Assembly (NCBI GenBank): GCA_008632985.1
Contig: QPGO01000025.1
Location: 1 to 64,000 of the forward strand
DNA from: Psammoneis japonica
Taxonomy: Eukaryota
Length of the DNA: 64,000 bases
Reading direction: 5' to 3'
Shown here: positions 3,401 through 60,410 of the stretch, in pieces
Position numbering within the stretch: position 1 is the first letter of the stretch
Layout: every line of letters begins with the position of its first letter
Position numbers and translations under genes: made by a program
Notes under the pieces: generated by a model
Told to the model about the DNA's origin: nothing
Database searches by the model: none
What the model saw: only the letters and a program-made list of their open reading frames with translations

Positions 3401-3468
3401 CTCATTTGGTGCAAATGAAAGACAAAGATGCTGCAAAAGCAACAATGTTGCACCACTGATGTCTCATC
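465..3468. other. TpA/CpG-depleted hypermutated block D1 (decayed repeat, family not identified)
   Basis: About 7 TpA in 3 kb by hand count; CA/TG-rich; overlapping Tyr-free, Cys/His/Gln-rich ORFs in all frames. Confidence 0.85.
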
Positions 3469-3681
3469 GGACTAGTCTACTGGCAGTCACCAGAACGTTG
3501 AGAGTGCTTCTAGCTGAAGGGGCAGCAGTCTTGCCCTAGGGCTGCTTTGCCAGTGGATGAGTCGGATGCTTGGTGGGGCGAAAAAGGTGGTGTCTTTGTT
3601 GGGCGCAGTGTCGGTGAATGGTTATTGAGTTGTTGCAGGATTCATACATTCGGTTCCTATGTAAGTAATTCAAGGCTGTTG

Positions 3682-4986: not shown

Positions 4987-5049
4987 TCTTCAACCTCGGT
5001 TTAGTCCAACTAGTCAAATGATACGAGGCTTTCTGGGCGTTCTCCGCCC

Positions 5050-7320
5050 ATCACTGCGCACTGTGTCACAAACAGCAGTCTCGACAACACCTTTGCAATC
5101 GATTGATTCTCTGCAACTTTCAGCTGCATGCTGTGGTTTTAGACTCATTGCATGTCAACTCAAAACCAGCCAGATGCCATTGGTCTCATCACAGGAGCCC
5201 ACCAAGAGTCTCGCAGGGTTTTGTTCCCTCACTGCTGCCCTGCCTGTCAAAGGTGCTGGCTGCCGCTGTGAAACTGAGAAAGATCTGACTTGACCAACCA
5301 GACAAATCTCCAACTCAGTCTCTGCAGGGACAACAGTCAAACCCATCACAACCTGAAATCTTCAGCTGAGCAATGCCAAAGTGGCTCTTAAGTGCCCTGC
5401 CTTGTGTGTGGCCAACAAACACGTCTCTCTTGCCATGGCGCAGAAGTTGAGGACACACGCACAAAAACAGAGTCACTCTCTGCATGTGACACAGCTTCAA
5501 GTGACACATGTCAACTGCACCACTCAAAAAAAAAGCTGCCAAAGAGCAGCAGGCTTCCTCTTCCCAAAAGAGCTTGATGCACCCCGCAGTCTTGTGTCAA
5601 AAGCATGAGGAATGTCCACGCCACCTTGCCATCTGCAAAAAATGCTTTGACACATTTGAGTGCTGTTGCAAGTGGCAGCACACACTCTGCAGGAAAGCAA
5701 GCAACCACCAACAGACAAGCCACCATGAAATGAAAAAAGGCTCCTGCTGCAGCCTCCACAGCTGTCTTTCTGAAGTCAGGGCACAACGCTGCAGGCCCAG
5801 ACAATCTCAGCAAATTGATCGAGGACACCCCAACCATTGGGATGCAGTGAAAAGAGAAAGTCACAATTTGCCCTTTTTGGCTTGTCAACTTTGTTGGATC
5901 TCATGCTGGGAGCTGTGCAGAATGTGCACATCATGATTCCAACACATGCAACAGTGCACAATTGTCACACAAAGGCTTGCACCATGAGAGTGAGCAAACT
6001 GCCCTCATTGTTGCACTGCAGCAGTGACCAGCTTGCATTTGTCTCTGCTGTCTTTGCTCTCTCCCCTCTCTTCTTTTCAAGCAAATCATTGCTGAGCATG
6101 CAGACAGTTCAGTGCCACAAGCTGCAAGACAGACAAATTGCGCACATTCCAGACATGAGAATTTCACAGCTCTGCAGCTGATCTCACAGGCAGCAGCACC
6201 ACACAAAGCTCAGCACTCAACCTGCCACTTCTGTGGCTGGGCAGGATGGCTGCATGTTGGGCAGAGGCTCCAGCAGCTCTTTGTGCTTTGTTGGCTCCAT
6301 GCCAGCAAGCGTCAATCTCCTTTCTTGGAAATGAGTGGGCATTCATTGAAGATCTCTCCCATTTGTTGTCTGTGTTTCTCTGTGTGCAAGGTCACATGCC
6401 AAGTGTGCAGAAGATGTCATGCACCCATGTGTGCCTTTTTTTTCATTTTTCACTGCTCTCCCAGACTTTCACTGGTTTGACTCACCCTGTTGGCTGTGCC
6501 CAACTCACAAAAACTTTTGCCAAAAAGCTCCCCCCGCCATTTCACATCATGGGAGGGGAGCAACACATGTCAAAAAAAAAAAAAGAGCTCCATTTGTTTT
6601 GTGCTCTGTTTGCCACTCCTCTTGCTGCACTCTGTGTGTTGTGCATTCTTTGCCTCCAGACGAACAATGGAACACACAATTGTTCCTCATTCCACACATG
6701 CTCCATGTCCTCTGGTGCCACACAGGTGTGTGGCAGAAACTTCGAGACAACCATCTGTCAATGTCAGAAATGGAGTGCTGGATGGATCATCAAAGCTGTG
6801 TTGTGTCAACAAGTGTTGGAGAAATGCAAAGCTGACTGCCGTTCTTGCTGGGCTCTTCTGTGGTGCTGCACCAAGTTGTTTGAGACAGCACAAAAACAAG
6901 ACTCCTTTTTGGATGCTTTGTCATGGCTCTGCTGACAAAAAAAAATCAAAGAACAATCTCAAGACAGGAGCAGTTGCAAGCCACCTTCTCCAATTTGAGA
7001 TTCTTTCCTTGATGCTCATGCAACAAACAACCACAACAGAATGTGTGATGTGTGTTGAGCTCAACAAAAGAGCAATGCTCCAGTGCATTTTCAGATGCTG
7101 TTGTTGGCAGTGGTGCAGTGGCATGACAACACAGCAGCTGTTGGTGTCACACATCAGATCTTGGATGTGGTGTGAGCCACCAAAAGGTCCAAAATGAACA
7201 AGGCAGTTGTTACAATGATGGCCCCAGTTGGGCATTTCATGTGCAGATTTTCTTGTGTCACAACTGCCATGGCTGACACTTTGTCAAACAAAGCTGTGTT
7301 CAAGGTGCACTTTGAGCGTG
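5050..7320. other. TpA/CpG-depleted hypermutated block D2
   Basis: Only about 2 TpA seen in 2.2 kb (TTAG near 5140, TTAA near 5388). Confidence 0.85.
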
Positions 7321-19649: not shown

Positions 19650-21030
19650 TCTCTTTGTTCACAGAGGAAAAGAACAAGAGACAGCAAGCGAAGTGGTCGC
19701 CACGTTGGAGTGGCGACATGGAACATGGGTGTGCAGTGCTTCTGACTTGCTGCTGTGAGGGTGCGCCCCCCAACTCCAAAGTGAGGAGCAGTGGAGGGAG
19801 CTGAGACCAGAACAGGGGCAGTTTCTGGTGTCATGTTGGCATCATCAGTGGTTGCAGCTCTTGCAGTCTTGAAAGCATGAAACACCACAAAGCAACAAAG
19901 GCACCAGCAACCAGCAGCACAGAGTCGCTGCTCTCGAAGAAAAAAGAGGAGAGTCTCTCTCCCGAACCCCCCACATCTCCCAAAGGAGCAACACACCCAT
20001 GGTCACAACTGCCACAGTTATTTTTGGGATGCACAATTCACACACCTGATGGTTGCAAGCACATGTGCCACCAAAAGCCTCAAATTTGAAGCACAGCAGT
20101 TGTGTGCACCAGGCGCGACCCCCACACCTTGAAAACCACACCGGCCCACTGCTGTGAATGGAGCTCACAATCACTGTCATTTTGTGGTCACCTGGCCCAA
20201 ACACAAGAACCAAATGACAAGATGCAAGCACATGAATTTGCCCAATTGTGTCAGAAGTCACACCCAACTCTCTTCCAATGCTCTTCAGCTGCGCCATGTG
20301 GTGCGCAATGCGCAGTCATTTGCAGCAACAGCAACCTGAGAGGGAGAGCAGCTGTCTCTTCTTGTGTCCCTTTGTGTCACACCTAAGACTGAAGCAATCT
20401 TCAGAAACACACTTGTTGCACCAACAATGTGCCCTCTTTGTTTTCAGGATGCTGGGCTTCTCCTCAAACAAAGCCCCTCTCAAGCTCCCAGCCACAGGGG
20501 CAGAGCTGGCGTGTGTGTCTCTTTCCTTGAACAGCCCTCCTCATGCCTTCTCCTCTCCCACCTCCTCTAAAACATCACATTTGGAACACTTCCTCAGTGC
20601 ATCAAGAGGCAGACAATCATCATCACAACAGCAACAAATGCAAGGTTGAGCGTGGCACAATGTGCAGCTGGCTGGGATGTGAGGAAGTGCGACTTTGTGG
20701 CTGCACACATCACCAGTTGTGCCAGATCATTTGAAGACTGCCAAGATCCTCATCACATTGATTGAAGAGGCCTGTGATGAAGATGACACTGACATGAGAT
20801 TCTGTGAGAATGGTGCTGAGCTCTCGAAGCTTTGGTTTGCCAGCAATGACTTTCCAACCAACAGAATCGAAGACCATTCTGGATGCCCTTCTTCTTAAGT
20901 CAACAATTTGACATAAACATGTTTCTGTGCTCGGACACTCATCATAATTAACCTCATGTGTTCATTGAGAAAACGAGACACAGCGGTTCAGCGTGCAATT
21001 CAAGAAGAGAACAAGGCACCTACAAGACAC
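19650..21030. other. TpA/CpG-depleted hypermutated block D3
   Basis: Very few TpA; coding-like remnant near 20720-20898 without Tyr. Confidence 0.8.
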
Positions 21031-28254: not shown

Positions 28255-29729
28255 ATGAAAGTAACCATGTCGAAGCCTCTTCTCATGTACCAGTTAGGAA
28301 CCAACAATTGGCAGCGCGAAGGCGAGTTCGCTCCTGGCTCGGGCATTCTTCACCAAGCTCATCACGGCGCATTCAACGAGATGGAAGGTGTCACGTGCTA
28401 TTCCATGTACCCAAGTCAGAAACAAACCCCTCACGAGGATCCGCTCGTGGAAGTCTTCAAGTTGACCCACCCCATTCCAATCTGTGAATCGGCGTCGCCC
28501 GTCAGCAGCTATCGCTGGCACTCCATGTCGGACGAGGAGTTTGAGGCATACAAGAAACGTCTAGAAGACGCTGTTTATAAGCAAATGGCCGAGGCCGAGG
28601 CCCGTGAAGGAACAACCTTTTCCGTTGCGGTAGCCCACCACACGTTTCTGAACCCTATCGTTCTTCGAAGTGTTCTTAGGAGACGTCATGCGGAGGGCAA
28701 GCCGAAATGTGCTCTTGTCTGCTTTGTCCATGGGACAGGTAAGTGATGATGGGGTCGGGATTCGATTGCTATGAAGCACGTTTATCCATGCGTTGTTGTG
28801 TACTGACATATATATTCTATCTTTCTGCTATAGCTCTCAAAATGTACGTTCACGAGCGCGATCAAGACATTCCTGGAGAGTTCCCGAGTCGCTTCTGGCC
28901 CATGCTCAAGGAATCCAAAGTCTTTGACGACGTGAACGGCGACGGTGTACAGCTGTGCTATGCCATTTCCAAGCAACAAGTGGACGCCTTTAGCGAAATC
29001 TTCCCTTCGTTTCCCCGAGATAACATCAGAATATCGCCGAATGGCATTGACCAAAACGTATTTCACCCGATTGAGGGTGCAACGATTGAGAGCGTCCTTT
29101 CCAAGTTTTCAACCGTTCACTACGAAGGGAGCCCCCGCACGGCTACGCCCATTGGCACGAGTGCCATTAAGCACATTGTGATTATCGTGTCCAAGTTTGC
29201 CGACTGGAAGCGCATTCCTGCGCTCTTGTACGCCGCCTCGTCGTTTGAAAAGGCGCTGCCCGGCACGGCTCTTGTGATTGTGGGAACCGGTCCTCATGAC
29301 GCGCAAAAGAAGCTTCAGGATCTTGCCTATGAAACGCTTGGATTGAAGCAGTGCTACTTCTTGGGACCTCAACCCCAGACGGTGCTTGCAGAGCTCTACA
29401 CAATTGCGTCTGTAGGTGTCTTTCCGAGTTACAAGGAACCCTTTGGGCTGGTCTTTGTCGAGTGCATGAGTACGGGGACACCCGTCATTGGAGCTCGTTC
29501 GGGTGGACCAAAGGACTTTGTCACGGAGGACGTTGGTCATCTTGTTGTGGAAACGGATGATCTTGAGGAGCTTGGAAGGAGGCTCGATGAGCAAGTGCAA
29601 GCCGCCATCAAGGACGATTGGAAAGCGTCTCGCGGCGAAGCTTGCAAGAAGCTTGTAGCTGATCGCTTTAGTGTCATGAAGCAGTGCAAGGAGCTACTGG
29701 ATTTCACGAGGGAGCATCTTGATATTTAG
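28255..29729 (+). CDS. GT4 (group 1) glycosyltransferase; intron 28739-28833
   Basis: VHGT, ISPNGID and FPSYKEPFGLVFVECMSTGTPVI motifs; GTAAGT..TAG intron in frame. Confidence 0.9.
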
Positions 29730-29802
29730 ATTTGATATTTACACTTTTTAGATTACCATGTTTGAAAACTCTTGAATACAACGAACAATACAACATACGC
29801 AA

Positions 29803-30630
29803 CTACATTTCGACACGATCGTCTTCCAACTCTCTTTTTTCGCCCTTGCGCACCGCGTGTCCAGCTGTCGAGAGTCCCAGGTTTGCCAGTAGCTCTCGCA
29901 ACAACGCAGCCCCCTTGATCTCGGCCAACTCGCTTCCGATCGTCTTTTGGAGACGTTGCGGCGAATCATTATCCTGCATTTGAATCATCACTTCTGCGAG
30001 AGTGAATGAGCCAAGGAGCCTGCCTTGGCTGGATACATCTGTCAAAGTGTTCTCTCTCCTACGAATATGCCCAGTTGCAAGGGCATGTAGAGCTTCCGTA
30101 ATGAAGCGTCTTTCTTCATAAAGAGCAAAGTGTCTCAGCTCTGACATGTTTAGGTCAGGTGTCTCGGGGGGCGGAAGATTCATGCCAGCGACGAGTGTGG
30201 CATGGATGGCGGAGCATATCGTCAAGAACTTGTCTTGGTCGTATTTTTCAACCAGTCCTTCATTTTCGTCCACGCAGACGGATGCACATTTTATCCCCTG
30301 ATCGGTATCCGCTGGTTGCCATCCAGCAGATAGCACGATCTTACCCTCCCGATCTTTGTCATCAAGATATGACAAGTGCCGAATGGGATCCTTATTCATG
30401 TTGATCTTCGATCTCTCATGATGAGTGACCCATGAGCCGTCATCCCATGCCGTGTACTCGTGTGAGTCAATCTTCTCGTCACAAACCGGACAATTTGGTG
30501 CAAAGAGGCGATTTTTGCTCACAATTGCATCAATTGTGCAACGAGGGCAAAGACAATGTCCGCACGGTATCAAATGAACCACGTCATGCTTGCCTCGTAA
30601 GAGAGGCCTCTGACATTCTTCACACTTCAT
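29803..30630 (-). CDS. RING-finger-containing hypothetical protein
   Basis: CEEC..PCGHCLCPRC..CPVC. Confidence 0.7.
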   Translation of the reverse strand: MKCEECQRPLLRGKHDVVHLIPCGHCLCPRCTIDAIVSKNRLFAPNCPVCDEKIDSHEYTAWDDGSWVTHHERSKINMNKDPIRHLSYLDDKDREGKIVLSAGWQPADTDQGIKCASVCVDENEGLVEKYDQDKFLTICSAIHATLVAGMNLPPPETPDLNMSELRHFALYEERRFITEALHALATGHIRRRENTLTDVSSQGRLLGSFTLAEVMIQMQDNDSPQRLQKTIGSELAEIKGAALLRELLANLGLSTAGHAVRKGEKRELEDDRVEM

Positions 30631-30804
30631 CCCTGTTGTCCTTTTGGGCTATGATAAGTTCTTTGGCGTGTCACCTGTCGCGGTGAGAAAAACTTCAAAC
30701 GAAAACTTGAACCGAGAAAAATGTGAGAAGCCGACTTACCGAAACTATCCATTCCCGAATAATAAGATTCAATTTTCGAAATTTCGGAAGCGGCTATCGG
30801 TGGT

Positions 30805-31442
30805 TGGTGATTGCAGACTTTTTCGTGTCGGTCGGGCATGCAGTCGGGGGGTCGGGCAGTCGGTCCGTCCGAATTTCAGAGTGTGTCCCTCGGATGTCGG
30901 AACGGTGTGTGTTGTTTAGTGCAAATGGATTATTGGATTTGCAGAATGATCATTGAGGACGTTAGAGGTCATGGGGAGACATCCCAAACAATCGACAAAT
31001 TCCCTGCGATGGGTGCGTGGAACTGTTTTTCAGGAGAGCTCGAAAGTGCTGCAAAATTGGGATTGCCGGCGTGCCACATTGACGAATTCATCAAGCTTTG
31101 AATGAAGACAATCATTGACCCCTCAGTGGTCAGTGATTGCAGACTTTTTTGTGTCGGGCAGTCGGGGGGTCGGGCAGTTGGGCAGTCGGGTTGTCCACCC
31201 GCTTTTGAAAGTGTGCCCCTCAGATTTTGGAGAACGGCGTGGGTTGTTTGGTGCAAATGATGTGCTCGGATTTGTGGAACAATCATTGAGGACATCAGAG
31301 GTTGTGGGGACATCCTAAAAATCAGCAAATTCCCTGCGACGGGTGTGTGGCATGGTTTTTCAGGAGAGCTCGAAAGTGCTGTAAAATTGGGGTTGCCAGC
31401 GTGGCATGTTGAAAAATGTGCCCAGCTTTGAACAAAGACAAT
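30805..31442. repeat. Diverged tandem duplication, unit about 320 bp (30805-31112 and 31133-31442)
   Basis: Shared blocks such as gtgattgcagacttttt and tttttcaggagagctcgaaagtgctg. Confidence 0.85.
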
Positions 31443-31464
31443 GTGTCGTGAATTCTACATGAAA

Positions 31465-32470
31465 TGGTCATGTTGGAAAAGATGTGTCAAGCAGTGAGTG
31501 TGTTTGTGCGATGTGCTGTTTTGGCAACAAATTGGAAAAAAGGAGTGTCTGCGCACTTCGCTGCAGCCCCAAAAATGGCATGAGCCATCAAGTGCAATGG
31601 TCATCTGTGTCACCGGTGCGGTGGCCACGCCACTGCTGTGCTCCAGAGTCTACACTGCCGCCATGCATGCAGGGCCCTGCGGCCTCAGCAGCACAGCAGG
31701 GCTCTGTGCATGCAGCACAGGCAATGTGCATGCAATGGCACACACCCACAGCCACAAAGAAACACACGCAAGTGGTCAATGCTCCCCGCAGGCCTGGTTT
31801 GTTGTGAACTGCACACAAAACAGTCACATTGTTGGAAAACACATGTCGAGCAATGAGTGTGTTTGTGCGATGTGCCATTTTGGTGACAAACTGGAAAAAA
31901 AGAGTGTCCGTGCACCTCCCTGCGGCCCTGAAAATGGCGTGAGCCATCAAACACAATGGTCATCTGCATCTCCGGTGTGGTGGCCATGCGCAGCATTGGC
32001 AACACATCATGCAACGGCACACACCCACAAAGAAAGACAAGCAAGTGTTCAATGCTCCCCGCAGGCCTGGTTCTTGTTTGTCCACTGCAGCAATGTTCAC
32101 AAGCTAGACAAGGACCAAACCAATGCAGGCTTGCACTCTCCCAAGAAAACCCAGGCTGGATGGCAAGGGCCAGAGGGCGGGAGAGGTGGGAGCATCAAAG
32201 ACCATCCATTTCGACTTGCTGTTGTTGTCTCAAAAGAACAAGCAAGCTTCATTGAACGGGTGGCTCACATGTTGCTGTGCGTTCAATGGAGTTGGGAATC
32301 TTGCTTGGTGCATTGCTTGAGGCCAGCAGCTGTTGCTGATTTTCTTGTTTGTCCACTGTGCAGCGACATTCACAAGCTGGACAAGGACCAAACCAATGCA
32401 GGAGTGGAGAGGGCTTTGCTGGCACAGGCTTGCACTCTCCCAAGAAAACCCAGAGGCTGGATGGCAAGGG
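31465..32470. repeat. Hypermutated tandemly duplicated repeat units; 32190-32340 is related to 39590-39690 and 39940-39995
   Basis: gagtgtgtttgtgcgatgtgc twice; gacaaggaccaaaccaatgcagg twice; gacttgctgttgttgtctc at 32212 and 39612. Confidence 0.8.
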
Positions 32471-35132
32471 CCTCCAACTCCTCCAAAGGAGGTGCAAGTG
32501 AATTTGGGAGGGAGAGGTGGGACTGGCTGGTGGGCTGTGGCACTCAAGGCACGCAAGGGGTTGCGGGGACATGGTTTTCAGGGAGAAGTACAAAGTTCCC
32601 ACCGGCTGACATGCATTGTGAGAAATTGCGCATGACAGGCTCTGCTTGCATGTGGAGGTGTTGAAGCATTTCATCAGAGCGCCAGCAGCCCAAGAGTCAG
32701 ACAATGTCAGTGTTCACTTGGCACACAGCAACCCCATGGCACCGGTGGCACAAAGGCAGTGCACAGAGACATCTGATGGGTTCAAACTGAGGTTCTGGGG
32801 GCCAAAGACAGTGACGGCAGTGCAGAGGATGGCCGCAATGTCAGCTGGGCTGACAAGGTGCCATGCTCCATCATGAAAGTGTGTGGAGAGGGGGGTGTCC
32901 GGGAGCATGCTGTGGGCGTGCAAATGTAACACTCGACGTGTTGCTGCTTTAACTGGGCAAAGCTGGGGGTGGCCAGAAAGGTCTGGGCTGATGACTTCAC
33001 CGTGCACACCGTTCTTTTGGTTGGTGAATGTGAGGGTGGTGAAGGTGGTGGCTGCAAGCTGTGTGGCTTGTGCTTGGCGCAGATCAAGGCACAAACCACT
33101 GGCGGAGAGAAGGATGTTGACAAGGCAGAAAGGGGTGGTGTTTGAGGGCGTGGCGGTGTGTTTGCCAGGGCACAAAAGGAAGAAAAAGGCCAGAGCAATC
33201 ATGTCAGTGATTGCTTGGGTGCCTGGGTGTTGGCCAAGGGCAGCAGCGGAAAGAATCCAGCACAGGACAGCGACTCTGTCTGGCAGAGGATCTTGCTTCT
33301 TGCAGCAACGGATTTGTTGGGCAAGTTGGAAATCCAAACCGCCTTGTGGTGTGAGGCGCGGGTCCGGGGACCCCATTGCAGCAAACGTTTGGCCAATGGA
33401 CTGCAGGGCATCTTCAGCAATGTGTCAACAGACGGGATTGCCATGTGGTGTGAGGATGCTGATGCGGTGTCAGTGGAGGTAGACCTGGATGCAGAGGATG
33501 GGATTGATGGCCACAGTGTCGCAGAAGTCGGTCCATTTTTCCCAATGGGCGTTGGCGGCAGAGGCACATGAAGTGGTGATGGTGAGAGTGACTGCTTGTT
33601 GTGCAGCACAGAGATCATGAAGGAACGCAGTTGGGTGGCAGGGTCCACAAGTGCCGAGGTTTGCTCTGAGGATGACAAGAGTTAAAGTGGTGCAAAAACT
33701 CAGTGTCAGTGAGGGATTGCAAGCATGAGGCATCATCATCAGCGGTGTTCTTGAGAGGGCCCGGCAGGCAGTCATGTGGGGTGAGGTGCCAGTGGAAACA
33801 TTGGCGGCAAACTTGGGGACACAAAAGGGGGGCACGGACTTTGGTGGCAGTTGAGGAACCTTTGCATTGCCAAAACATGGTGTGAAAGCTGTTGGTCCAT
33901 TGGAGGTGGGTGCGTTCCCACATGTCAAAGCATTTGGAGGCTGCACGTGTTTGCAGCATGATTGGTGTTGGTCATGGAGCAGGTGGGATGTTTGCAGGTG
34001 ATGAGATCAGATGTGACGGCTTTGGGGAAGGGCATTTGCCATGATGTTGGACCTGTTGATGTTTGACAGTGTGCATGTGCCAAAGGACTGAACTTGAGTT
34101 TAGTTGCCCATGGCACGGCATCTGCGCTGGTGGGCAGGAGCACTCCTCCTGCTCCATGCCTGGCGGCATCATGGCATCCATGCACAGTGGGTTCAAGTGG
34201 GGCTGGTTCTTGGATGTGAGCTGGATGATGTTTGACAGTGGCACAGAGGTCTCTGAAGTCATCCATGATTGTGTGGAAGGTGGGTGTGAGACTCACACAG
34301 GAGTCAGGTGTGGCGCAGTGCAGCAGCTCTTGGAGTTCCGAAAACAAGCCACGCGATCCGGGGATTGCTGTTGACAGTGAGCTCACTGAGAAGGTGGTGG
34401 CAGTTGGAAGCGGTTGCTTGATGATCACGCTGGCAGGGGAAGTCCTGATGCAGTGCAGTGTGGAGTCATGCAAGGCAACGGTCGGTGAGGCGCAGTGTCA
34501 TGGCATGGGTGTTGATGAGCCAGCCCAGCACCTCTTTTTGTGTTGACCAAGTTGTGTTGCCTTTGCACAATTTCTTTGCTGAGATGGGTTCTTGACATTG
34601 TTTGGTGTCATTGGCATCAAGCAGTCAAAATGTGTTGTTGAGGGCTGTCATGATGGTTTGCAGAACATTGAGCCGGGAGCACTGTGTTCCTTGTGAGGCA
34701 CCAATGCAGTCATCTGCACACATGTCAACACATTGTAGACATCGGCAGCATGTGTGATGCAGGTGTGGGTCCAGCGTGGCTGGCAAGGGCATGGCCAGTG
34801 TTGAATCTCTGAGTGGTGCAGTGCGCAATGGCAGGCAACGGCTGTTTGCCACCTGTTCCAGGCGGTGGGGCAGTGCCTGAAAGTTGTGCTGCTGGAGTCA
34901 GTTGGCCAAGTTGGTGCCAGTCTTGGCTGCAACACAAAATGCTGGTGGCGAGTTTTTTCCAGCCCATGGGCAGCCTGGCTGGCATTGCTGCTGAGGGTGG
35001 TCCACCAGGCAGCAATGGAAATGCAACAGCCAATGTTGGTGCTCGGTCCAGTGCAACGGAGAGATGACAAAAACCATCGGACATGTCCTTCTTGAGCAAG
35101 CAGATGCGTCCTTTGGATGGGTCAGTCAAAAG

Positions 35133-35577
35133 TGCAACACACAGCTGCTGACAAGAGTTGATGCATCACGGCGACGTGTTGCAGCCTTTAAATGTCACAA
35201 AGGGCGTGACAAAATGACCTTTTGTCTGCATGCATGCTGCATTGTGAATTCACAGCGGAGTGGTTCATCGCAACCATTGGGCAGGAGGCCAGGGGTTCGA
35301 AACCCTGAGTGGGAGTTGTCTGCAGCAACGTTGATCACTGTCGAACGCGTAAAACTCTGTGCAGTTCTGCGTGTTCCTTCGTGCGCACCCACACTGTTCC
35401 GCCAAAACCGTGCAGTGTCAGCACACGTCAGTAAAGAGCCGCATGGACGCGCGATGCATGGGGAGGAGTGCAATGTGCAGCTGCCAATGAGAGTTGATGC
35501 ATCACGGCGACGTGTTGCAGCCTTCAAATGTCACAAAGGGCGTGACAAAATAACCTTTTGTCTGTGTGCATGCTGCA
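35133..35577 (+). mobile_element. Miniature LTR element (TRIM-like): 109-bp LTRs 35133-35241 and 35469-35577, AAAG target duplication, internal tRNA-type A/B boxes
   Basis: TG..CA termini; purine tract GGGGAGGAG before the 3' LTR; removal restores the RT frame LLRCALLTDPSKG. Confidence 0.9.
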
Positions 35578-35971
35578 AAAGGGCACACCGCAAGAGGCGA
35601 TCAAGCACACGTCCAAACTGCATGGCTTTGACTGGGACGTTGGGTTGGGTGGTGTCATTGGCGCCAAAGCAGGTGTGGCCAACAATGGGGCGTGGGTGCT
35701 GACTGCATTGTGGGGCCACACCGATGGGGCCAATGCGCAAGCCTGGTTGATTTTTGACTTCATTGCATGGAACGACAACCCAAAAACCCTTGTCCATGCA
35801 GCCAGCCATGTCTTCTTGTAAGAAATTGATGCACCTGCAGGCGGACTTGTGTGGACCCCTGGCGATGCTGGCGTTGAGTTCCCTCAGCACTCCAGGGTGC
35901 ATTTGCAATGGTGACTGGGATGTCTCGATGCTTGTGGTGGTGAAGCACCTGGCATGCCGGGTGTTTCTTAA

Positions 35972-36573
35972 GGTGGCACGAGACAAAAATTGTGAAAATC
36001 GTTTCTGCGCACATTTTCATTGAAAATCACGGGAAAATCAGGAATCCGTCGTCACACAAAAGCATTGTGTCTCATTGGCAAACCACATGGGTCGGCATGC
36101 GTGTGATTGCGAGTGTGTCACTCAACGGAAATTCCGTTCGGCGATTGCTCATTGTTCATCGCCTCTTTCTCTGCTGTCTCGGAAGGGCCATGAAAGGCAC
36201 TTCCAAGATGAAAACACTTGTGAATTTAAGCATGCAGACACTTTCTACACTGTCTTGGCTTCCTGCCGAGTGAAAGAAAATGCACCTTTTGACACTTTTT
36301 TCCACTCAAATGTCCAATTCAAAAACTCAGGGCAAAAAAACAGGACCTTTTTTTTGCTGACAGGAACATCTCATTGACACAATCTCGAAACTTGCAGTTT
36401 CTTTCCATGGGCAAGTCAAGGAGACACCAGTTGAGGATGCAGGACACTTGGTTGAAGGAAACGCAACATTTGACAGCGTCCTGGGAGAAGCCGAAGTGTG
36501 ACCATCGCTTTGTGTAGAAACGTGCAGAAATCACACCAGAAAAAATTCCAAACAATTTTCATCTCGCACCACC
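35972..36573. mobile_element. Non-autonomous TIR element with TTAA target site and GG..CC ends (Kolobok-like)
   Basis: TIRs of about 22 bp; flanks TTAA (35968-35971) and TCAA (36574-36577); removal restores the frame PMSCIKKHPA. Confidence 0.8.
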
Positions 36574-39230
36574 TCAATGCAGCTCATTGGCCCCAAATCA
36601 CCTTGGCCGCAATGTAGATGCAACAAATGGTTGAGGCCATGTCGACATGATCTGGTGGCATCATGTGCAATCTGCTTGCCCAACTCATCAGTGTTTGCTG
36701 ATGCAGCAATTGCCTGTCCACATTGTCGCTTCGTGGTGCGGTGCTGTTGCTGGCCAAACCTTTCCGCCTGCAGTGGTGGTGGCACAATGGGCTCTTGGTT
36801 CACAGTCCCTGAACTAGAGCCATTGCCAACAACCTGTTTGGTTGTCCAGCACACGTTCGCCCATTCAAACAGATTGTCTTGCTCTTCCTGTGTGTGGCCA
36901 TGATGGTGGTCCACATGGGGCTGCCACAATTGGAGTTGCGTTGGCCCTTTAGATGGCAGGGCAAGCACCGTGAGTTGCCTGGGGCGTTGACAGGCAGGGC
37001 GATGTTGTTGCGTGCACATCGTTGCTTGACGTCCCGTGATTGTGCGTTCGGTCGAGCATGCAGTTCATCAAAGCATGTGTTGCACTGGAGGTTGCGCGCC
37101 AAGCTGTTGTCTCTGGGTGTTCCAGTGGCAGGTGCTGGTGCCGGTGCCTCGCCCAATGTCAAAGTTTGGGGTGGGCGCTGACACAGGTGCAGATGGGGCC
37201 AAGTGCACTGTGTGGGGCAAATTGCAGCCCCAGCACATGGATGGAACCTTTAGTGGCCTCGTGCACTGCTGAGCGGGCTGTTGAATGGCACCTTTTGATC
37301 ACTGCATTCCTGTTGGTGGAACCAGCAAAGAAGTTTGATTTGGGTGCACCATTGAAAATCCACTGTCAGTGAGGGGTGACAAAGCAGTTGCACAGCCAGG
37401 TTGCTGGCGCAAACATTGACATCCCATTGGAGGTCCCCAAGGTGGCACATTGTTGGATGCTGTGCTCTGAGCAGTGCTGACAGCAAGACTTGCAATCCAT
37501 CCAATTGATGTTGGGTGGCTTGGATTGTCATCACAACCTTGGTGTCATCTGGCACCTCCAACACCATGGTGTCAGCCAAGAAAGGTGCTCCATCTCCGCT
37601 GTGCATTTGTTGGTGCAGCACATTGCAATGGTCAATTTGGGCAGCTTGCTGTGGCATGGTGAGTCCAAACATGAAAGGACCAAGTCCTTGAGACAGCTCA
37701 TCTTGATCATGCCCGGCAAAGGTGAGCCACACAAGCTTGGTGACGAGATTGACAGTGACTGGTGCTTCAGTGTAAACACCTTGAGCTTGGTGCTGCTTGT
37801 CTGCAGTGTTTTGTGCCATTGCAATGTGCCCGGTTTTCAGTGCGGTGGCCAATCATGTCCACATCGGTGGCAGTTGTTGTTCCTGGTGCACTTGGCAGAC
37901 ACACATTGACTTTGGCACTCCATGTGCACCATGGAATTGCTGCTGCAGGACCTTCCCCCTTTCACTTGCTTGCTGCCTGGCGACAGTGTCTAAACGCTGC
38001 TGGCATTGCTTGGCATTGAGGTTGTCAATGGCATTGATGATGGGCTGCCACTGTTGCGTGATTGGATGACCTTGTCCAGTGCAGTTTGGGAAGTCCCTTT
38101 GCACCTTGCGTTCAAAGCATTGGACCAGCAAGGCATTCTGTGGTTGGGGCGGACTTGGCCAATTCTGCAGCATGGTGGATGCATGGGCATCTTGTTGTTG
38201 CGCAGCCATTGCTGCTGCCTTTAAGAAGTCCAACAGTGGACGGCACTCATCAACTTGATTGGCTGCTGTGGCCGCTCCATGGATTGCCGCAAAAGCTTGC
38301 TTGGGTCCAATGGCGTTTGCAACAATGGGCTCACACAAGCAAATGGCACGTGCATGGACATGCGTGTGCAAACCTTGACAGCAATGGGGGTCTGAGCTGT
38401 GACGGCCGGATGTGGCCCTTCCGGTGTGGCAGTGATTGCTGCCAGCATGGCATCGTCAGTCAATGCGTGCACACCATTTGGTGCTGAGTTTATCAGCAGA
38501 TCCAGAAACTCTGCGATTTGGCACTGGTTGCATGCTGGGTCTCCAACGACTCCACAAACGCAGCCATCCCCCCCATGGTTGTGGCTGTCCCACTGCTGCA
38601 GCAGGACAGGTGGAGATCCAGTGTGACACTTGCATGTGTCTGGTGTGGTTGGATGGTCCTGGCACTCAGCAGTGCATGACAACAGGCATGAGAACATCAT
38701 GCTCAGAGGCTGCTGTGTGCTGTCAAACAAAGCTGCCAGGTTGCATTGGGATTGACCGTTTGCGATGGCAGCAAAGTCCAACATGGCTTCTGCACAGCTG
38801 CGATGATGCAGATCTAAATCGGCAGTTGCACAAAAATCAGCACAGGTGTGCAGGATGCATGGCGGCTGGTGGTTTCCTGGAGGCAGCACTTGTCCAGCGG
38901 CGCCCGCCTGAGGCGGCGGTGCCAGCTGCACTTGTGGTTGAGCGGCTGCTCCTTGTTGCACTGCTGGCGGTCCTTGTGGGGCGCTTGCAGCACGGCGGCA
39001 CTTGCGGTTGTGGCGCACCTGTTGTGCCAGCGGTGCTGGGTGTGCAGGTGGTGGGGGCGCAACACCTTGTGCCGGTGATTGTGCCCCTTGTTGGGGCGGT
39101 TGATCCGCTCCTTGGTTTGACACATTGAAGTGTTGTTCTCATGCGAGTGGACAACAGCGGCGGAGGTGTCGACGCGTTCCAGACGTAGGTGGGAATCCGT
39201 GTGACATTGGGCCCGTAGACTTCTACGTGC

Positions 39231-39548
39231 GAGCTCCGTAGTAAAATTATACGGTAATTAATTAAAATGTCAATGATCGCCAACAGAAAATGAGGCAATT
39301 TTGCGAACGCACAAACTCGCCCATGATTGAAGTACATCATTTTTTACTTAGCCAGTTACATTCTTCAGACATTGAAGAATGTAACTGGCGCATTATTTTT
39401 TCTATAAATTCGTTATATAAAACGTCTGGGGCTTCGCAAAACAGCGAGTCTGGACAATTTTTTTTAAATATCACACGTAGAAAGCTACGTGCGAAACATA
39501 CGACGGATGATAAAAATTATTTGTGTCACACGTCAGTACTACGAGCTC
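39231..39548. mobile_element. Possible AT-rich MITE-like insertion, not hypermutated
   Basis: Ends gagctccgtagta and tactacgagctc are inverted repeats; interior is TpA-rich. Confidence 0.45.
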
Positions 39549-39799
39549 CCACCTAGGGCTGGAACGCGTCTGTCCTGCGTCAAACCAAGGGCATCAAAGA
39601 CTGTCCATTTAGACTTGCTGTTGTTGTCTCGAAAGAACAAGCGAGCTTCGTCGGATGGGTGGCTCATGCATTGCTGTGCATCAATGGCAATCTTTCGTGC
39701 CATGCAGTCATTGTAAAAAGACATGTAGAAATTGTGCAGATCAGTGCCAAGAGCAAACAATCATTTGTCTGTCCATCCACCCTCAGTGAATTTTAATTC

Positions 39800-39899
39800 T
39801 GCGAAAAATGGACTTGACTGCAAACTGATCAGGCTCATTTCAGAACAACGCATTTGCAGAAATACGCCTGATCAGTCAGCAGTCAAGTCCATTTTTGCA
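39800..39899. repeat. Inverted repeat with arms of about 42 bp and a 17-nt spacer
   Basis: aaaaatggacttgactgc..actgatcaggc pairs with gcctgatcagt..gcagtcaagtccattttt. Confidence 0.9.
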
Positions 39900-40152
39900 A
39901 AAGTTTTGAGAAGACAACAGTTTTGGTACAAAAACGTGCAACGGAATTGGGAATCTCGCTTGGTGTATTGCTCGAGGCCAGTGGACGCCGACCGTTTTTG
40001 CGCGCTTTTGCCAAAACGCAGAATGCAGGGCAGGTACTACTACTGTTGACTGTGCTGTAAGGGCCTACTCCTATGGTATCTTCTACTCCTATGAAGCAAG
40101 ACCTCGCTCATCAAATCATATCAGAGCCATAGGGCCTCTAAGATAGCGTACC

Positions 40153-42883: not shown

Positions 42884-43914
42884 TGGGATGGGCAAGTTGT
42901 GATGGGGTCAGGATTTGATTGCTGTGAAGCATGAAAGTCCAAGCATTGTTGTGAACTGGGATTTGATTGCATTGTTGTGAACCAATGGACATGACACTCT
43001 GTTGTTCTGAAACAGCTCTCAAGATGTGCGTTCACGAGTGTGAGTGAAGACATCCCCCAAGAGTTCCCGAGTTGCTTCTGGCCCATGCTCAAGGAATCCA
43101 AAGTCTTTGATGATGTGAGTGGCAATGGTGTGCAGCTGTGCCATGCCATTTCCAAGCAACAAGTGGATGCTTTTGGCAAAATCTTCCCTTGTTTCCCTGT
43201 GATGACATCAGAACAATTTGCCGAATGGCGTTGACCAAAACAAATTGAGGGTGCAACAATTGAGAGTGTCCTTTCCCAAGTTTTAATGGTTCGCCACAAA
43301 GGGAGCCTCAAAAATGGCTGCTCCCATTGACACAAGTGCCGTTGAGCTCAAATTTTGGTTGTTGTGTCCAAGTTTGCTGTCTGGAAAAGGTGCATCCCTG
43401 CACTGTGGTGGACCACCTTGTTGTTTGGAAAGGAGCTGCCTGGCATGGCTCTTGTGATTGGGGGAGCCAGTCCCCATGATGCACAAAAGAAGCTTCAGGA
43501 CCTTGCACATGAGGCATTGAAAACCAAAGCAGCACCACTTCTTGGGACCTCAACCCAGGACGGTGCTTGCAGAGCTCTGCACAATTGCATCTGCAGGTGT
43601 CTTTCTGAGTCACAAGGAACCCTTTGGGCTGGTCTTTGTCAAGTGCATGAGCGCAGGGACCCCCGTCATTGGAGCTTGCTCAGGTGGGCCAAAGGACTCA
43701 GTCACGGGGGGATGTCAACTGTCTTGTTGAGGAAATGGATGATCCTGAGGAGCTTGGAAGGAGGCTCAACAAGCAAGTGCAATCTGCCATCAAGGATGAT
43801 GGGAAAGTGGTGTCTCATGGCGAAGCTTGCAAGAAGCTTGCAGCCAATCTCTTCAGTGTCATGAAGCAGCACACAGAGCTGCTGAATTTTGTGAGGGAGC
43901 ATCTTGACATTTAG
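42884..43914 (+). pseudogene. Hypermutated copy of the GT4 glycosyltransferase intron and exon 2
   Basis: Colinear with 28731-29729; frameshifts; Tyr to Cys/His changes (ELYT to ELCT, PSYKE to LSHKE). Confidence 0.95.
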
Positions 43915-43984
43915 ATTTGACACAAACACTTTTTAGACCACCATGTTTCCAGTGCTCTTGAGTGCAAATGAACAAAACAACATG

Positions 43985-44844
43985 TGCAACTGCATCCCGA
44001 CATCCTCTTCTTCCAACTCTCTCTTCTCACCCTTGCGTGCCATGCTCCCAGCAGTTGAGAGTCCCAGGTTTGCCAGAATCTCTTGCGACAACACAGCACC
44101 CTTAATCTTAGACAACTTGCTTCCAATGGTTTTTGGAGATGTTGTGGCAAACAAGTGTCCTGAACTCAAATCGTCACCTCTGCGAGAGTGAAGGAGCCAA
44201 GGAGCATCCCTTGGCTTGTGACACATCTGTCGCAGCACTCTCTCTCCTGTGAGTGTGCCCAGTTGCAAGTGCATGCAGAGCTTTTGCAATGAAGCACCCA
44301 TCTTCATAAAGAGCAAAGTGTCTCAGCTCTGACACGTTTGGGTCTGGTGGTGTGGGGGGTGGGCGGATGAATCACACCGGCAATGAGTGCAGCGTGGGTG
44401 GTGGTGGAGCATGTCACCAACAACTTGTCTTGGTCACATGTTTCAACTGGTCCTTCAGTTTTGTCCGTGTAGATGGTTGAACACTTTCTTTTGGCATGAT
44501 TGGTGTCTGCTGGTTGCCATCCAGCAGATGGTGGCAAGATTTTGCCCTCCCAGCCAATCTTTGTCAACAAGGTGTGACAAGTGCCGAGTGGGATCCTTTT
44601 TCACATTGATCTTTGATCTCTTGTGATGAGCAACCCAAGAGCCTTCATCCCATTCTGTGCATTTGTGTGACAACTCAATCTTCTCATCACAAACCGGACT
44701 GTTTGGTGCAAAGAATCGATTTTTGTTTGCATTTGCACCAGCAGCAGTTGTGCAACGAGGACAAAGACAATGTCCACAAGGTGTCAAATGAACCACGTCA
44801 TGTTTGCCTTGTAAGAGAGGCCTCTGACATTCTTCACACTTCAT
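43985..44844 (-). pseudogene. Hypermutated copy of the RING-finger gene at 29803-30630
   Basis: MKCEECQRPLLQGKHDVVHL matches the intact gene; frameshifted; HEYT to HKCT. Confidence 0.95.
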
Positions 44845-56789: not shown

Positions 56790-59700
56790 CGATGGTGACC
56801 AAAAATTTGGCAATCTGCAGCAAGTTCAGCCCCGTCCACCCCAGCCATTTTTTGACTCTCATCCATCGTGTGCACAACAGGGGCCAGCTGGCAGCAGCAG
56901 CCATGCTCTGTGTGTTTTGCACACCCCATGCTTGCTGGGAGACACCTCAGAGGTGGCTCCGCTTTTGCGCTCCTCTTCTTCCTCCACGAGCTCCCCCAAG
57001 CCCAGAGGGGCAGAGTTTGGCCCGCGCTGCTGTGTTTCTTGAAAGTCTCTTTTCCTTTTCTTCGCTGGGTGCTGCTCTGCTTTGCACTGCATTTTTGGCC
57101 ATCAAGGCAGCCAGAGAGCTTTTTTCATTCCTCCTTCTCTTTCAAAACTTGTTTTTTGTGCCACCGCCAGCTGCCACTCTTTTTGTGGCGGAGCCCAAAG
57201 TGCCTGCCTGCTGCAAAGGGTGGCAAGGAGAGCAAGAAGAAAGTGATGCAGCCAGCCTGTCTGCGCTCTTTTTGTCAGCTGGCAATTTTTCAATGCAGCC
57301 AAGAAGGGACAAGAGAGCCACATCCATGCTGAGAGCAGAAAAGCGGGGCAGAGCCATGTCAGCAGCACGAGAGAAAGCGGGAAAACAAGCACAAAAGAGA
57401 GGCGAGAGAGAAATGAAGTCTCGAGAGGAAGGAGCCGCAGATGAAGGTGGGCAAAGAGGGTGTCAGAAGATGGCTTTTTACCCATTCCACCCTTCCACCA
57501 AGGTCCTCACTTGTGCTGTGTGGCAAGCCGCTCTTTTTGTCACCAACTTCCCCCCTGCAGATGCCAGCACGGCCTGCAGGTGCTGCAACAGTCACTCAGT
57601 CTGATGAGGAGTCCATGAACCGCGTGGGAACATTCTGTGTGCTGCCACACGCGATGCTGCGTGGCCACTTTGGTGGTCCATCATTGAAACACTGGGCCCC
57701 CTCAGTGGTCTGTGCCACTCTGGCTGACAAGTTTGTCCAGACCCCGCCGGTCTTCTTTCCACCCCCCCCCAAAATGCCCTGCCAATGTTGGCGTTCAACT
57801 CATCCCCAGTTCCACACCACCAGAAGCCCCATCCACCCACCAATTTTTGGCCATTGACATCAATGTGCCGACAGCTCTGGCTCCCGCGCCTCCTGTGCAC
57901 CTGGCTTGCCTGCCCCTGAAAAGAACCTGTTGAACAAGGCTCACCTCAGCAGTGCATGGGACAAGCTCCTTAGCTGAGCCTGACAAAATTAAGGCAAGTG
58001 GCAAGAATTCAAACAATGACTCCTTGCTGCTGTCTAAATGGCAGATGAGTCTCCACTCAGAGACCGTCACAGGAGCCGAAAGACGTGCAAGTCGGTGTGA
58101 TGGGCTGCTGTCATCGTTCTTGTGAGCCTTGTGGCTCGAAAGCAAACCACATCATGCGCGAACGCGCGGAACTGAAGCACACAAAACTGTGCACGGCAAA
58201 CTAAACAGCACGCGACATTTCACGCGCACCTGAGTCCTGCTCAAATCCTGTCACTCCCCAGTTTGCTTGAGGAGTCACAGAAACAGATTCGACTTCGGAT
58301 GGAATGAAGTTCCAAAACATGAGGGGATGGAGAAGGTTCCAGATTTGGGAGCAACCCCAATGCTTGCTGAGAATGTCAGCAGGGTTGCGGGAGCCTTCGA
58401 TGAAGTGGAGCTCAAGGCAGCCAGAGGCAATCGCCTCGCGCACACGATGGAATGAGAGAGCGGTGTGTCGCTTGTGCAACTTGGAGTGCAGGATGGTGGC
58501 ACTGTCCACAACTGACTTGTTGTCACCGAACATGCAACTGATGTCACGGATCGGGATGCCGAGGTGACACAGGGTGATGCGCAGGTCAACAATCTGCTCA
58601 ACACAAGTCCTTGCGGCAACAAATTCAGACACCCGCAGGTCGCAGTCTCCACGGTGGCTTGCTTCTTAGAGAACCAATCAGCCGGGCATTTGTTGAGGAA
58701 GTGGAGCATTCCCATGACAGAGCATCCGGTGAGCATGCAATGGTGCAAGTTTGCATTGACGCAGTGGGTGGCAGTGACGAACTTGCCAAGGGGCGGTGGA
58801 GCGTCCTTCGGGATCATCTCTTCTGCTTCGCCGCACACAGAGTGCATCCACTCACAGGCCGGAGCAGGGAGATCCGAATGGTCGGGCTCTTCTGTGCGAA
58901 CGCGGAGAGCGCCGTGTCGCATCTTGGAGAGGTGCCCACAGATGCATTTGGCACGATCCAAGTGGCCTTGACGGGGCGCAGCTCGGAAGCCAGACAGTGA
59001 CATGACGGCCGTGGCAATGTCAATTCGACTGAGAGACACTGCCCATTGGAGGGAGCCAACAAGAGACTGGAGCTGTTGAATGCCATCGGGTTCCAGCAGT
59101 TTGGAAGTGTCCAGTTCGGGGTGGTCACCCTTTTCCAGAGGGGACAGGACGTTGGTGGCAGGTTTCTCCCCAAACAGTCATGTGCAGCTGTCGACCATGC
59201 GTTCGATGCACTTGCGCGGAGACAGACACAAGGTGCCGTCAGGATCCTGGGAGAAGTCGCAGCCTGGGTGGAACTCAATCGGTCCCGCACCCTTGAGCTT
59301 GAACTTGTGCTTCTCCATGAGAGCATCAACGAAAGGCTGAGGATCCTTCATGGCAATGGCGAGGTCATCCACATGAACGGCAACACATTCACAGTGGTCG
59401 CCATTCCTGTGCACCCAAATGTCGGGTTCGGAGCGGCAGGGGAAGAAACCTTCAGCTCGCAGGCAGTCGGCGAAGCACTCGTGCCAGTGGAGGCCGGAGC
59501 TGCGCAGTCCACATGGGGCCTTGTAGATGACAAGAATGTGGCCTTCGAGTTTGCCAAATTCGGGTCCGCGTCATCTGCGCGCCATTCCAACGTTGTTGAT
59601 GCCATCAATCAAGCAGGGCTGCTCCTCTTGCCTCTCCTTTTCACCTTCGACCACCTGGGCAGTGTTGGGGGCACCACTTCCACATCTTCTTCTTTGGCAT

Positions 59701-60410
59701 CTCCACCACAACACCCCCCTCTGTCCCTCCTGTCCCTCCCAAACTGCCTTGGGCTGATCCATCTTCCCTCTCCAACTCCCAAGCTTCCTTCTCTGCCCTC
59801 AAACACTCACTCCCAGCTCCCTCTGACTTCCTTGCCCACTCGCCCAAAACAATGCCTCCTGGAAACAAGTGTCAGCAGACCGCTTTGGCACCTCCCATCA
59901 CACCACAACCCCTCAACCCTCAACTTCGGGCCTCACAAATCCTCAGCCTCAACTTCGGCGTTGCTCTCTCCAACCACCTTTCTGCATGCCAAGCCCTCCG
60001 CCTTCTCTGACACCCAACCATGCATCAATGAAGTGCAACTTGTTTGAGGCTTGATCGACATTCAGTGGCATTTTTTCAAACAGCTCGTGATTTTGCAATC
60101 TTCTCGCACTTCGCCCGCGTCATTTTGCGGCGCCTCTGAGCACCCCAAACACCCATGTGTGTGTCTGGCCCCCATCAGGGCTGTCAGACCTTTGCATGAA
60201 CTGTGCTTGTCAACCTTCAAATGCCAATTGTCGCATCAGGTGCGGTTGTGATTTTGGGCGAACCGCTGTTTTTCACCAAAATCGGGCTGTCAATGACAGA
60301 CAAGCCGCGGCTTTCCAGGAAAGGCCAAGAACTGGCGTTTGACTGGCCACAGACATGTCTGCTGGTGCGGTCGTTGTTCTGGAGATCCCGAACCTTCATG
60401 TTCATTGTGC
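56790..60410. other. TpA-depleted hypermutated block D6
   Basis: About 7 TpA in 3.6 kb; includes the Copia remnant. Confidence 0.9.
58254..59565 (-). mobile_element. Truncated Ty1/Copia RT-RNase H with polypurine tract; 3' LTR starts at 58253 and runs left (extent uncertain)
   Basis: KAPCGLRSSG, VHVDDL, WFSKKQATVETAT, MFGDNKSVV, FHRVREAIA, NPADILSK; GGGGAG then TG. Confidence 0.93.

Follow-up and report, generated by a model that had tools for sequence, protein, structure and literature searches.

A dead Ngaro-type retrotransposon in Psammoneis japonica that has most likely lost most of its TpA and CpG dinucleotides since insertion

A 64,000-nucleotide (nt) stretch of the Psammoneis japonica genome (NCBI GenBank assembly GCA_008632985.1, contig QPGO01000025.1, positions 1 to 64,000 of the forward strand; hereafter the window) carries on its minus strand, at 32066–40013, an insertion which, judged from its sequence, is a decayed single copy of a Ngaro-type (DIRS-order) tyrosine-recombinase retrotransposon. 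We estimate a probability of roughly 0.85 that this dead copy lost TpA and CpG after its insertion, most likely by a region-targeted TpA mutator together with a separate decay of CpG. Comparison with relatives and among repeats indicates that, after insertion, almost every TpA of the whole insertion and of the adjoining repeat array became TpG or CpA, the changes falling on both strands, and that most CpG likewise went to TpG or CpA. Because every tyrosine codon contains TpA, tyrosine turned into cysteine or histidine throughout, including the tyrosine of the Y(F)-V-D-D motif of the reverse transcriptase (RT; now TGT) and the nucleophile of the tyrosine recombinase (YR; now CAC). The loss of CpG converted conserved arginines to Cys, His, Gln, Trp or the stop codon TGA, and ordinary decay added frameshifts and insertions. 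The agent would most likely be a region-targeted mutator converting A:T to G:C at TpA in silenced or foreign DNA, with enzymatic deamination of adenine in DNA as candidate chemistry. The loss of CpG would most simply reflect a separate, slower deamination of 5-methylcytosine in methylated transposon DNA.

The composition of the region departs from that of the surrounding DNA within sharp limits. In 1-kb windows from 31001 to 39000, the observed/expected ratio (o/e) of TA is 0.04–0.11, that of TG and CA 1.6–2.4 and that of CG 0.27–0.63, as compared with 0.4–0.9 for TA and values near 1 for CG in gene-bearing windows. Only 25 TA dinucleotides are left in 32560–39130. The coding segments of the element show a TA o/e of 0.05–0.10 (0.40–0.61 in the host open reading frames (ORFs) on either side) and a CG o/e of 0.37–0.47. 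At the left border the TA o/e falls from 0.41 (30649–30963; left flanks 0.40–0.41) to 0.07 from position 30964 on; it is 0.07 for 30964–32186, 0.00–0.10 in the segments of the element, 0.06 in ORF1 and 0.17–0.28 in 39586–40013, and beyond 40013 the right flanks reach 1.39, then 0.61. Non-coding host DNA near the island retains TA. On the plus strand TG exceeds CA at 32750–35000, from which we derive no claim of strand bias, as the detection of coding changes is itself biased. The core (35242–35463) of an insertion within the RT has a TA o/e of 0.19 and a CG o/e of 0.98. It thus keeps CG and has lost TA, which indicates that the two losses are out of step and differ in speed; on these compositional grounds we read them as two processes, a fast one acting on TpA and a slower decay of methylated CpG.

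Residue changes at conserved positions were assessed with hidden Markov models (HMMs) built from 120 relatives of the polyprotein (pol) and 30 relatives of the recombinase, by which 966 HMM columns were mapped to codons of the element. The first-pass annotation had expected changes from Tyr to Cys or His, and this expectation is borne out: at the 16 columns in which Tyr is the commonest residue, the element reads Cys in 7, His in 7, Ala in 1, Pro in 1 and Tyr in none. Cys and His together make up 11.6% of the mapped residues, and the binomial probability of finding them in at least 14 of 16 columns is 7.5e-12. Tyrosine accounts for 1 of 727 residues, Cys for 6.3% and His for 6.5%, versus 1.8%, 1.7% and 2.6%, respectively, in host ORFs. 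Among 371 conserved columns (the same residue in at least 70% of relatives), 242 are identical in the element and 129 are changed. The consensus residue is restored by changing TG or CA back to TA alone in 15 of these 129 columns, by changing TG or CA back to CG alone in 53, and by both combined in one further column. When the consensus residues were shuffled among the 129 columns, the means were 4.9 (TA) and 15.7 (CG), and none of 1000 shuffles reached the observed values. Transitions outside TG/CA contexts restore the consensus in 17 of 131 changed columns, a count from an earlier mapping in which YR columns 327–340 were out of frame. Both directions are equally represented on the sense strand at conserved columns, with 14 cases of TA>CA and 13 of TA>TG.

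The two catalytic tyrosines follow the same pattern. The reverse complement of 34700–34729 is GTTGACATGTGTGCAGATGACTGCATTGGT, which encodes VDMCADDCIG and contains the codons ATG TGT GCA GAT GAC TGC (MCADDC) that had been reported for the RT motif. Likewise, the plus-strand GTG at 32658–32660 is CAC on the minus strand, in a frame reading LLGCWRSDEMLQHLHMQAEP (WRSDEMLQHLH), as described for the end of the recombinase. Both positions are conserved as had been claimed: the RT column holds Y in 76, F in 42, H in 1 and C in 0 of 120 relatives, where the element has TGT, and the nucleophile column holds Y in 27 and H in 1 of 30 relatives (2 gaps), where the element has CAC. A single TpA transition separates each of the two codons from TAT or TAC. 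Intact copies with the same Cys or His would have spoken against the annotation; a single His in 120 relatives at the RT column, with no Cys, and a single His in 30 at the nucleophile do not do so. The ancestral motif that had been reconstructed by restoring TpA (IYVDDY) does not hold, since relatives instead have V (97/120), Y or F, V (106/120), D, D and F (100/120). The Met of the motif is explained at least as well by a CpG-to-CpA change across the codon border (GAC-GTG to GAC-ATG) as by a TpA change, and its last Cys requires a Tyr ancestor, found at that position in only 8 of 120 relatives. The overall reading of the annotation therefore stands for the two key tyrosines and for 14 of the 16 Tyr columns, which fit a change of TpA to TpG or CpA, and fails for the reverted motif.

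The loss of CpG is most apparent at arginines. The 44 conserved Arg columns now read R 12, C 12, H 7, Q 6, stop 3, W 2 and S 2, a loss of 32 arginines in total; CpG transitions replaced 30 of the 44, active-site Arg of the recombinase included, and three of these became in-frame TGA. In the recombinases of the relatives, R, K, RxxR, W and Y are invariant or nearly so; from their order and spacing, we take these residues to be equivalent to the catalytic set of Cre. At these putative catalytic positions the element has R>C, K kept, R>H, R>C, W kept and Y>H. It had also been proposed that the process inactivates such elements without the need for stop codons. As chemistry this is sound, because every Tyr codon holds TpA and changes at TpA create no new stop; in this copy, the effect is inseparable from CpG loss, frameshifts and a 450-nt insertion, which contributed to its death at least as much as the loss of TpA.

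Repeats were sought in purine/pyrimidine (R/Y) code, because all changes of interest are transitions. On the strand of the element they form split direct repeats in the order A1-[ORF1, pol]-B1-A2-B2, from about 40013 to 32066. The range 32560–39130 given in the first-pass annotation hence matches the coding part, and the repeats extend the element to about 32066 and 40013. The features are as follows.

30964–40013 (unstranded): TA-poor, TG/CA-rich island with the element, broken by the unmutated insertion at 39171–39575
32066–32171, minus strand: repeat B2, 3′ end of the element; alignment of ~105 nt with B1, with differences that include TA/CA and CA/TG sites
32187–32358, minus strand: repeat A2, matching 39586–39682 and 39934–40013
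32346–32472, minus strand: repeat B1, aligning with B2
32559–33640, minus strand: tyrosine-recombinase domain; YR HMM columns 7–340, score 290.4 (iE 2.9e-90)
32658–32660, minus strand: recombinase nucleophile codon CAC (His), from its HMM column
33615–34383, minus strand: RNase H-like and connecting part of pol, in two further frames; pol HMM columns 451–571 (score 94.6) and 580–691 (58.2)
34379–35126, minus strand: central and C-terminal RT, in two frames; pol HMM columns 203–260 (45.2) and 259–450 (130.0); tblastn matches of the relatives P0017 and P0144
34706–34723, minus strand: RT active-site motif M-C-A-D-D-C; V-[Y/F]-V-D-D-F in relatives
35128–35577 (unstranded): 450-nt insertion in the RT; 114-nt direct repeats (35128–35241 and 35464–35577) around a CpG-rich core
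35588–35974, minus strand: N-terminal part of RT; pol HMM columns 68–198, score 108.7
36917–39138, minus strand: ORF1, in Gag position; tblastn homology 38389–36917, open frame 38221–39138
39171–39575 (unstranded): later, unmutated high-copy insertion between ORF1 and A1; TA o/e 0.91, CG o/e 1.54
39586–40013, minus strand: repeat A1, 5′ end; ~250 extra nt at 39683–39933; TA o/e 0.17–0.28

Comparison of such repeats indicates when the changes took place. Between A2 and A1, 32187–32283 and 39586–39682 share 80% of nucleotides and 99% in R/Y code, and 32279–32358 and 39934–40013 share 64% and 91%, respectively. The eight repeat pairs compared, which lie within or beside the island and sum to 717 nt, differ at 119 sites, 97 of them by transitions; 23 are reciprocal CA/TG sites, 5 are TA versus TG/CA and 27 are CG versus TG/CA. 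A reciprocal CA/TG site requires two independent changes of an ancestral TA, one in each copy, so the DNA was altered after insertion. The two 114-nt arms of the RT insertion (88% nucleotide identity, 100% in R/Y code) are 14 transitions apart, 12 of these at inferred TA sites, which suggests that the process was still active on the DNA after this insertion had arrived. DNA other than transposons is affected as well: a separate island, at 42884–44037, contains a partial duplicate of the host gene at 28731–29850, 80% identical to the intact gene. Of 41 TA sites in the host gene, the duplicate has TG or CA at 31 and still TA at 2; of 70 CG sites, it has TG or CA at 52 and still CG at 10. All of 79 metagenomic relatives of the element have ordinary composition (TA o/e 0.32–0.85, median 0.63; CG o/e median 0.96) and mostly long open frames, and relatives found by phmmer have ordinary Tyr content. 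The depletion is therefore not a trait of the family.

The identity of the element as a tyrosine-recombinase retrotransposon, proposed in the first-pass annotation, is corroborated by several lines of evidence. Raw translations of the element gave no relevant match to Pfam, neither for 15 pieces at E<=0.1 nor for the read-through translation P0001 (X at stop codons) and the N-terminal RT piece at E<=10, and homology was therefore sought by phmmer and by HMMs of relatives. A phmmer search with P0001 against 1.84 billion representative sequences gave 1959 matches at E<=1e-3, the best (7.5e-56) over residues 424–726; one match, P0144, covers residues 9–174. The relative P0017 (882 aa, from RT to YR) is colinear with 35123–32720 of the window, and among its relatives of 900–1000 aa are named proteins of Fragilaria crotonensis, Chaetoceros tenuissimus and Cyclostephanos tholiformis. 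RVT_1 was found in 27 of 40 relatives, with a best E of 2.9e-9 and most below the Pfam cut-off, and integrase (rve), protease and methyltransferase families were found in none of the 40. After the RT, relatives have conserved CDA...SDN...ADD-type motifs and a strand/helix pattern, without a Pfam RNase H match. An AlphaFold model of the relative P0002 (pLDDT 87.5) resembles Cre (2hof_B, E 1.5e-7, TM 0.60/0.70) as well as Tn1549 Int, IntI and XerA, and the model of P0017 resembles the RTs of MMLV, XMRV, Ty3 and CaMV (E about 1e-7), in addition to Cre/Tre. Profile searches of PDB sequences with the YR and pol alignments gave no meaningful match; a language-model look-up pointed to Phage_integrase clusters, which we treat as a lead only. 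A metagenome scan with P0017 alone gave 163 pattern matches, none of them confirmed, and the alignment-based scan succeeded.

The order of parts in the element is ORF1, then a single pol frame with RT, RNase H-like part and Cre-like tyrosine recombinase. ORF1 (38389–36917) is homologous to the first ORF, of ~700 aa, of metagenomic relatives (29 tblastn matches, best E 2.7e-25), and none of three ORF1s tested matched Pfam. Direct repeats 5.8–6.7 kb apart were present in 7 of 9 contigs of relatives examined. DIRS1/PAT-like elements are distinguished by a methyltransferase-like domain and, for DIRS1, by inverted terminal repeats. Such an assignment was rejected, given 40 relatives without a methyltransferase family and an element without inverted repeats of at least 40 nt, even in R/Y code. 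The Ngaro-type assignment appears probable from domain content and split repeats. Two observations on the relatives may be added. At L046:1-8958 and other metagenome loci, ORF1 flanks pol on both sides with a spacing of 5766 nt and repeats that are 100% identical, which fits head-to-tail copies or a circular form. The recombinase relatives P0067, P0028, P0029 and P0020 contain less than 1% Tyr and raised Cys or His, and may be hypermutated copies from other organisms.

The HMMs place on seven pieces of the element in alternating frames. Apart from the break at the 450-nt insertion, this implies a minimum of five frameshifts, one of which lies near 32712–32720, with YR HMM columns 326–380 scoring 52.5 in a second frame. 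Reading the element as one continuous frame (P0001, 34897–32717) was rejected, the middle third being out of frame by HMM mapping. Erasure of TAA and TAG (38 in the element stretch versus 281 in host DNA of equal length) lets every frame look open; from 31000 to 39500, 58 ORFs of at least 80 aa overlap 8.5 kb in all six frames. Contigs of sequencing run X1 have a depth of about 50–66 over the coding parts but of thousands over the repeats next to them, a pattern compatible with the element being present once at a likeness of at least 85%. At the RT insertion the pol HMM jumps from column 198 (35588) to column 203 (35126). The summed contig depth of the insertion, about 107,000 versus about 61, marks it as a member of a very abundant family. 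Its CpG-rich core contains a tRNA-like GGTTCGAAACC stretch; despite this stretch, a tRNA scan and an Rfam search of the island gave no match. The insertion at 39171–39575 has a summed depth of about 141,000, and many contigs diverge from the window at 39171–39260.

Some further observations concern neighbouring DNA. The spacer between ORF1 and pol (35975–36916) is ~400–450 nt longer than in relatives and includes, at 36000–36560, a stretch rich in CpG and in A/T runs (depth 730–880), possibly another insertion. A tandem array with units of ~273–359 bp and a summed depth of ~3200–4000 occupies 30797–32060; it is TA-poor from 30964 on, and its leftmost part retains TA and CG. A copia-like pol (e.g. 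the ORF at 58275–59177) lies in a separate island at 57000–60000 with a TA o/e of 0.02–0.06 and a translation rich in Cys and His. Further blocks, with a TA o/e of 0.00–0.11 and a CG o/e of 0.07–0.26, are found at 1001–3500, 5001–7000 and 20001–21000.

Four other explanations were considered. One is that old junk DNA decayed slowly and neutrally under a context bias common to the whole genome, without any targeted process. This would accord with the age of the copy (at least five frameshifts, and insertions) and with those changes at conserved columns that lie outside TpA and CpG; CpG decay of methylated transposons is moreover commonplace, and methylation of diatom long terminal repeat (LTR) elements is reported in the accessible text of PMC2806351. 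It is nevertheless improbable, in view of the sharp borders (TA o/e from 0.41 to 0.07 at 30964, and from 0.06 in ORF1 to 0.91 at 39171), the retention of TA in nearby non-coding host DNA, and the conversion of ~88% of Tyr columns when only 17 of 131 changes are reachable by transitions outside TG/CA contexts. An artefact of base calling or assembly at modified bases in heterochromatin appears very improbable. Some long-read callers can misread modified A and C, and the sole run in which the stretch is represented probably derives from the sample used for the assembly (runs X2 and X3 contain next to none of it, and no RNA run is listed for it). However, contigs of run X1 reproduce pieces of 2506, 1219, 602 and 490 nt with 0–1 differences at an even depth of about 50–66, the copy has real indels and amino-acid changes consistent with relatives, and the same signature is described from Illumina data of another alga in the available part of a preprint (10.64898/2026.01.13.699255).

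The remaining two alternatives refer to the biology of the element itself. As it replicates via RNA, and as ADAR-type enzymes prefer a 5′ U (according to the available part of the same preprint, 10.64898/2026.01.13.699255), ADAR-like A-to-I editing of its RNA before reverse transcription could have been fixed at integration. Yet the directions on the sense strand are equal (also for Y>H and Y>C, 7 each), copied repeats differ at reciprocal CA/TG sites and so changed after integration, and both the array at 30964–32060, which is not part of the element, and the duplicated piece of the host gene are affected. Taken together, the results on family composition, repeat pairs, both strands and the host duplicate rule out editing of element RNA with a residual probability that we consider very slight. 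They also argue against a live element that avoids UpA and CpG under selection, as many RNA viruses do. The joint depletion of TA and CG with an excess of TG and CA does resemble such viruses, but TA and CG are at ordinary levels in every one of the 79 relatives, non-coding repeats and neighbours are depleted too, and the replacement of catalytic residues, the in-frame TGA codons and, above all, the broken frames refute it for this copy, so that it deserves next to no credence.

Several points weigh against a post-insertion, region-targeted loss of TpA as the account of this copy. Two of the 16 Tyr columns hold Ala and Pro, and 60 of the 129 changed columns are explained by reversal of neither TpA nor CpG. 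Losses of CpG at conserved residues exceed those of TpA (53 versus 15 of 129), so the TpA process alone is not established as what killed the element. The ancestral states rest on relatives that are only 30–55% identical in protein. The unmutated high-copy insertion at 39171–39575 sits within the island, and is either recent or a sign that targeting is not purely positional. Run X1, with its library type not on record and probably from the assembly's own sample, is a partial control. Finally, no CpG component is described in the accessible part of the report on the closest known system, the alga Bigelowiella natans, and the two cases may therefore not share a mechanism.

In mutation-accumulation lines of B. 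natans, two integrated viral regions acquired 231 mutations; all but one were A>G or T>C, and these 230 all lay at TpA, at rates about 1000-fold above background; clusters of TpA-poor windows rich in CpA and TpG were described, and an ADAT2-like adenine deaminase was proposed as candidate (Mettrop et al., bioRxiv 10.64898/2026.01.13.699255; this and the following comparisons draw on the portion of the text available). The pattern by which that process is recognised, TpA transitions to TpG or CpA on both strands within a bounded block, is found in the window, with loss of CpG in addition. Both cases share the change of A:T to G:C at TpA, giving TpG or CpA depending on the strand, and the confinement to blocks of foreign or selfish DNA in which TpA is depleted and CpA and TpG are in excess; RT and transposase domains are enriched in the TpA-poor coding sequences of Bigelowiella. 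The targets in that chlorarachniophyte are integrated giant-virus and virophage DNA, whereas here the host is a diatom-like stramenopile and the target a retrotransposon with neighbouring repeats. The TA o/e of about 0.05 is near saturation, compared to 0.45 in the nucleocytoplasmic large DNA virus region of Bigelowiella, and strong CpG loss accompanies it. By analogy, the window would show the long-term end state of a Bigelowiella-like process, on a retrotransposon in a diatom-like genome; for the host uL3m, the closest cluster consists mainly of Bacillariophyta.

In the literature searched, from which subscription journals fell outside coverage, we found no description of TpA hypermutation in diatoms. 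By term match in the text available, a 2025 preprint on diatom transposons (10.1101/2025.10.24.684338) makes no mention of DIRS, Ngaro, tyrosine recombinase, hypermutation, TpA or deamination, and PMC3266345 none of diatoms or stramenopiles. As far as the accessible part of PMC8547959 describes it, the Ngaro element of Cafeteria burkhardae is similar in its size of ~6–7 kb, an ORF1 in Gag position, an RT followed by an RNase H (putative in the present family), a tyrosine recombinase that stands where other elements have a DDE integrase, and direct repeats split in the order A1-[ORFs]-B1A2B2; it differs in having a separate ORF3, unlike P0017 and the Fragilaria and Chaetoceros proteins, in which RT, RNase H and YR form one frame.

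Two other well-known processes bear on the case. Fungal repeat-induced point mutation (RIP), among classical processes the closest analogue, changes C to T at CpA (or CpG), enriches TpA and makes stop codons. The window resembles RIP of ascomycetes in that dense transitions are confined to repeats and transposons and genes are killed. It is opposite in direction, as TpA is erased (TA o/e about 0.05, TG/CA 1.6–2.2 by segment) and TAA and TAG are removed instead of stops being made. The element is now single-copy by depth and hence gives no sign of a RIP-like dependence on duplication. The decay of CpG in methylated transposons, which agrees with the change of CpG to TpG or CpA and of Arg to Cys, His, Gln, Trp or stop, accounts for the CpG half only; in diatoms, LTR elements are CpG-methylated (PMC2806351, accessible text).

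These data document in diatoms an unannotated Ngaro-type family, whose recombinase and ORF1 both fall short of any Pfam model. The process acting on TpA is seen in a second major algal lineage, and is told apart from the slower decay of CpG on the same DNA. Removal of TpA by a mutator disables all proteins in which tyrosine is required, including both enzymes of a tyrosine-recombinase retrotransposon, without making stop codons. Sequences stripped of TpA look open in six frames and mislead gene finders toward over-calling, and the change of Tyr to Cys or His at conserved columns provides a simple coding read-out by which the process can be dated and mapped across diatom genomes. More tentatively, at odds that we put slightly below even, diatoms may possess an active, chromatin-targeted mutator of TpA to TpG or CpA directed against silenced transposons and stray duplicates. 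If so, this mutator would act as RIP in reverse (a "reverse RIP"): it would kill genes through the erasure of all their tyrosine codons, erase stop codons as well and shape which repeats survive, and, given the same signature measured in a rhizarian alga (10.64898/2026.01.13.699255, in the part available), the system would be old within the lineages of Stramenopiles, Alveolata and Rhizaria (SAR).

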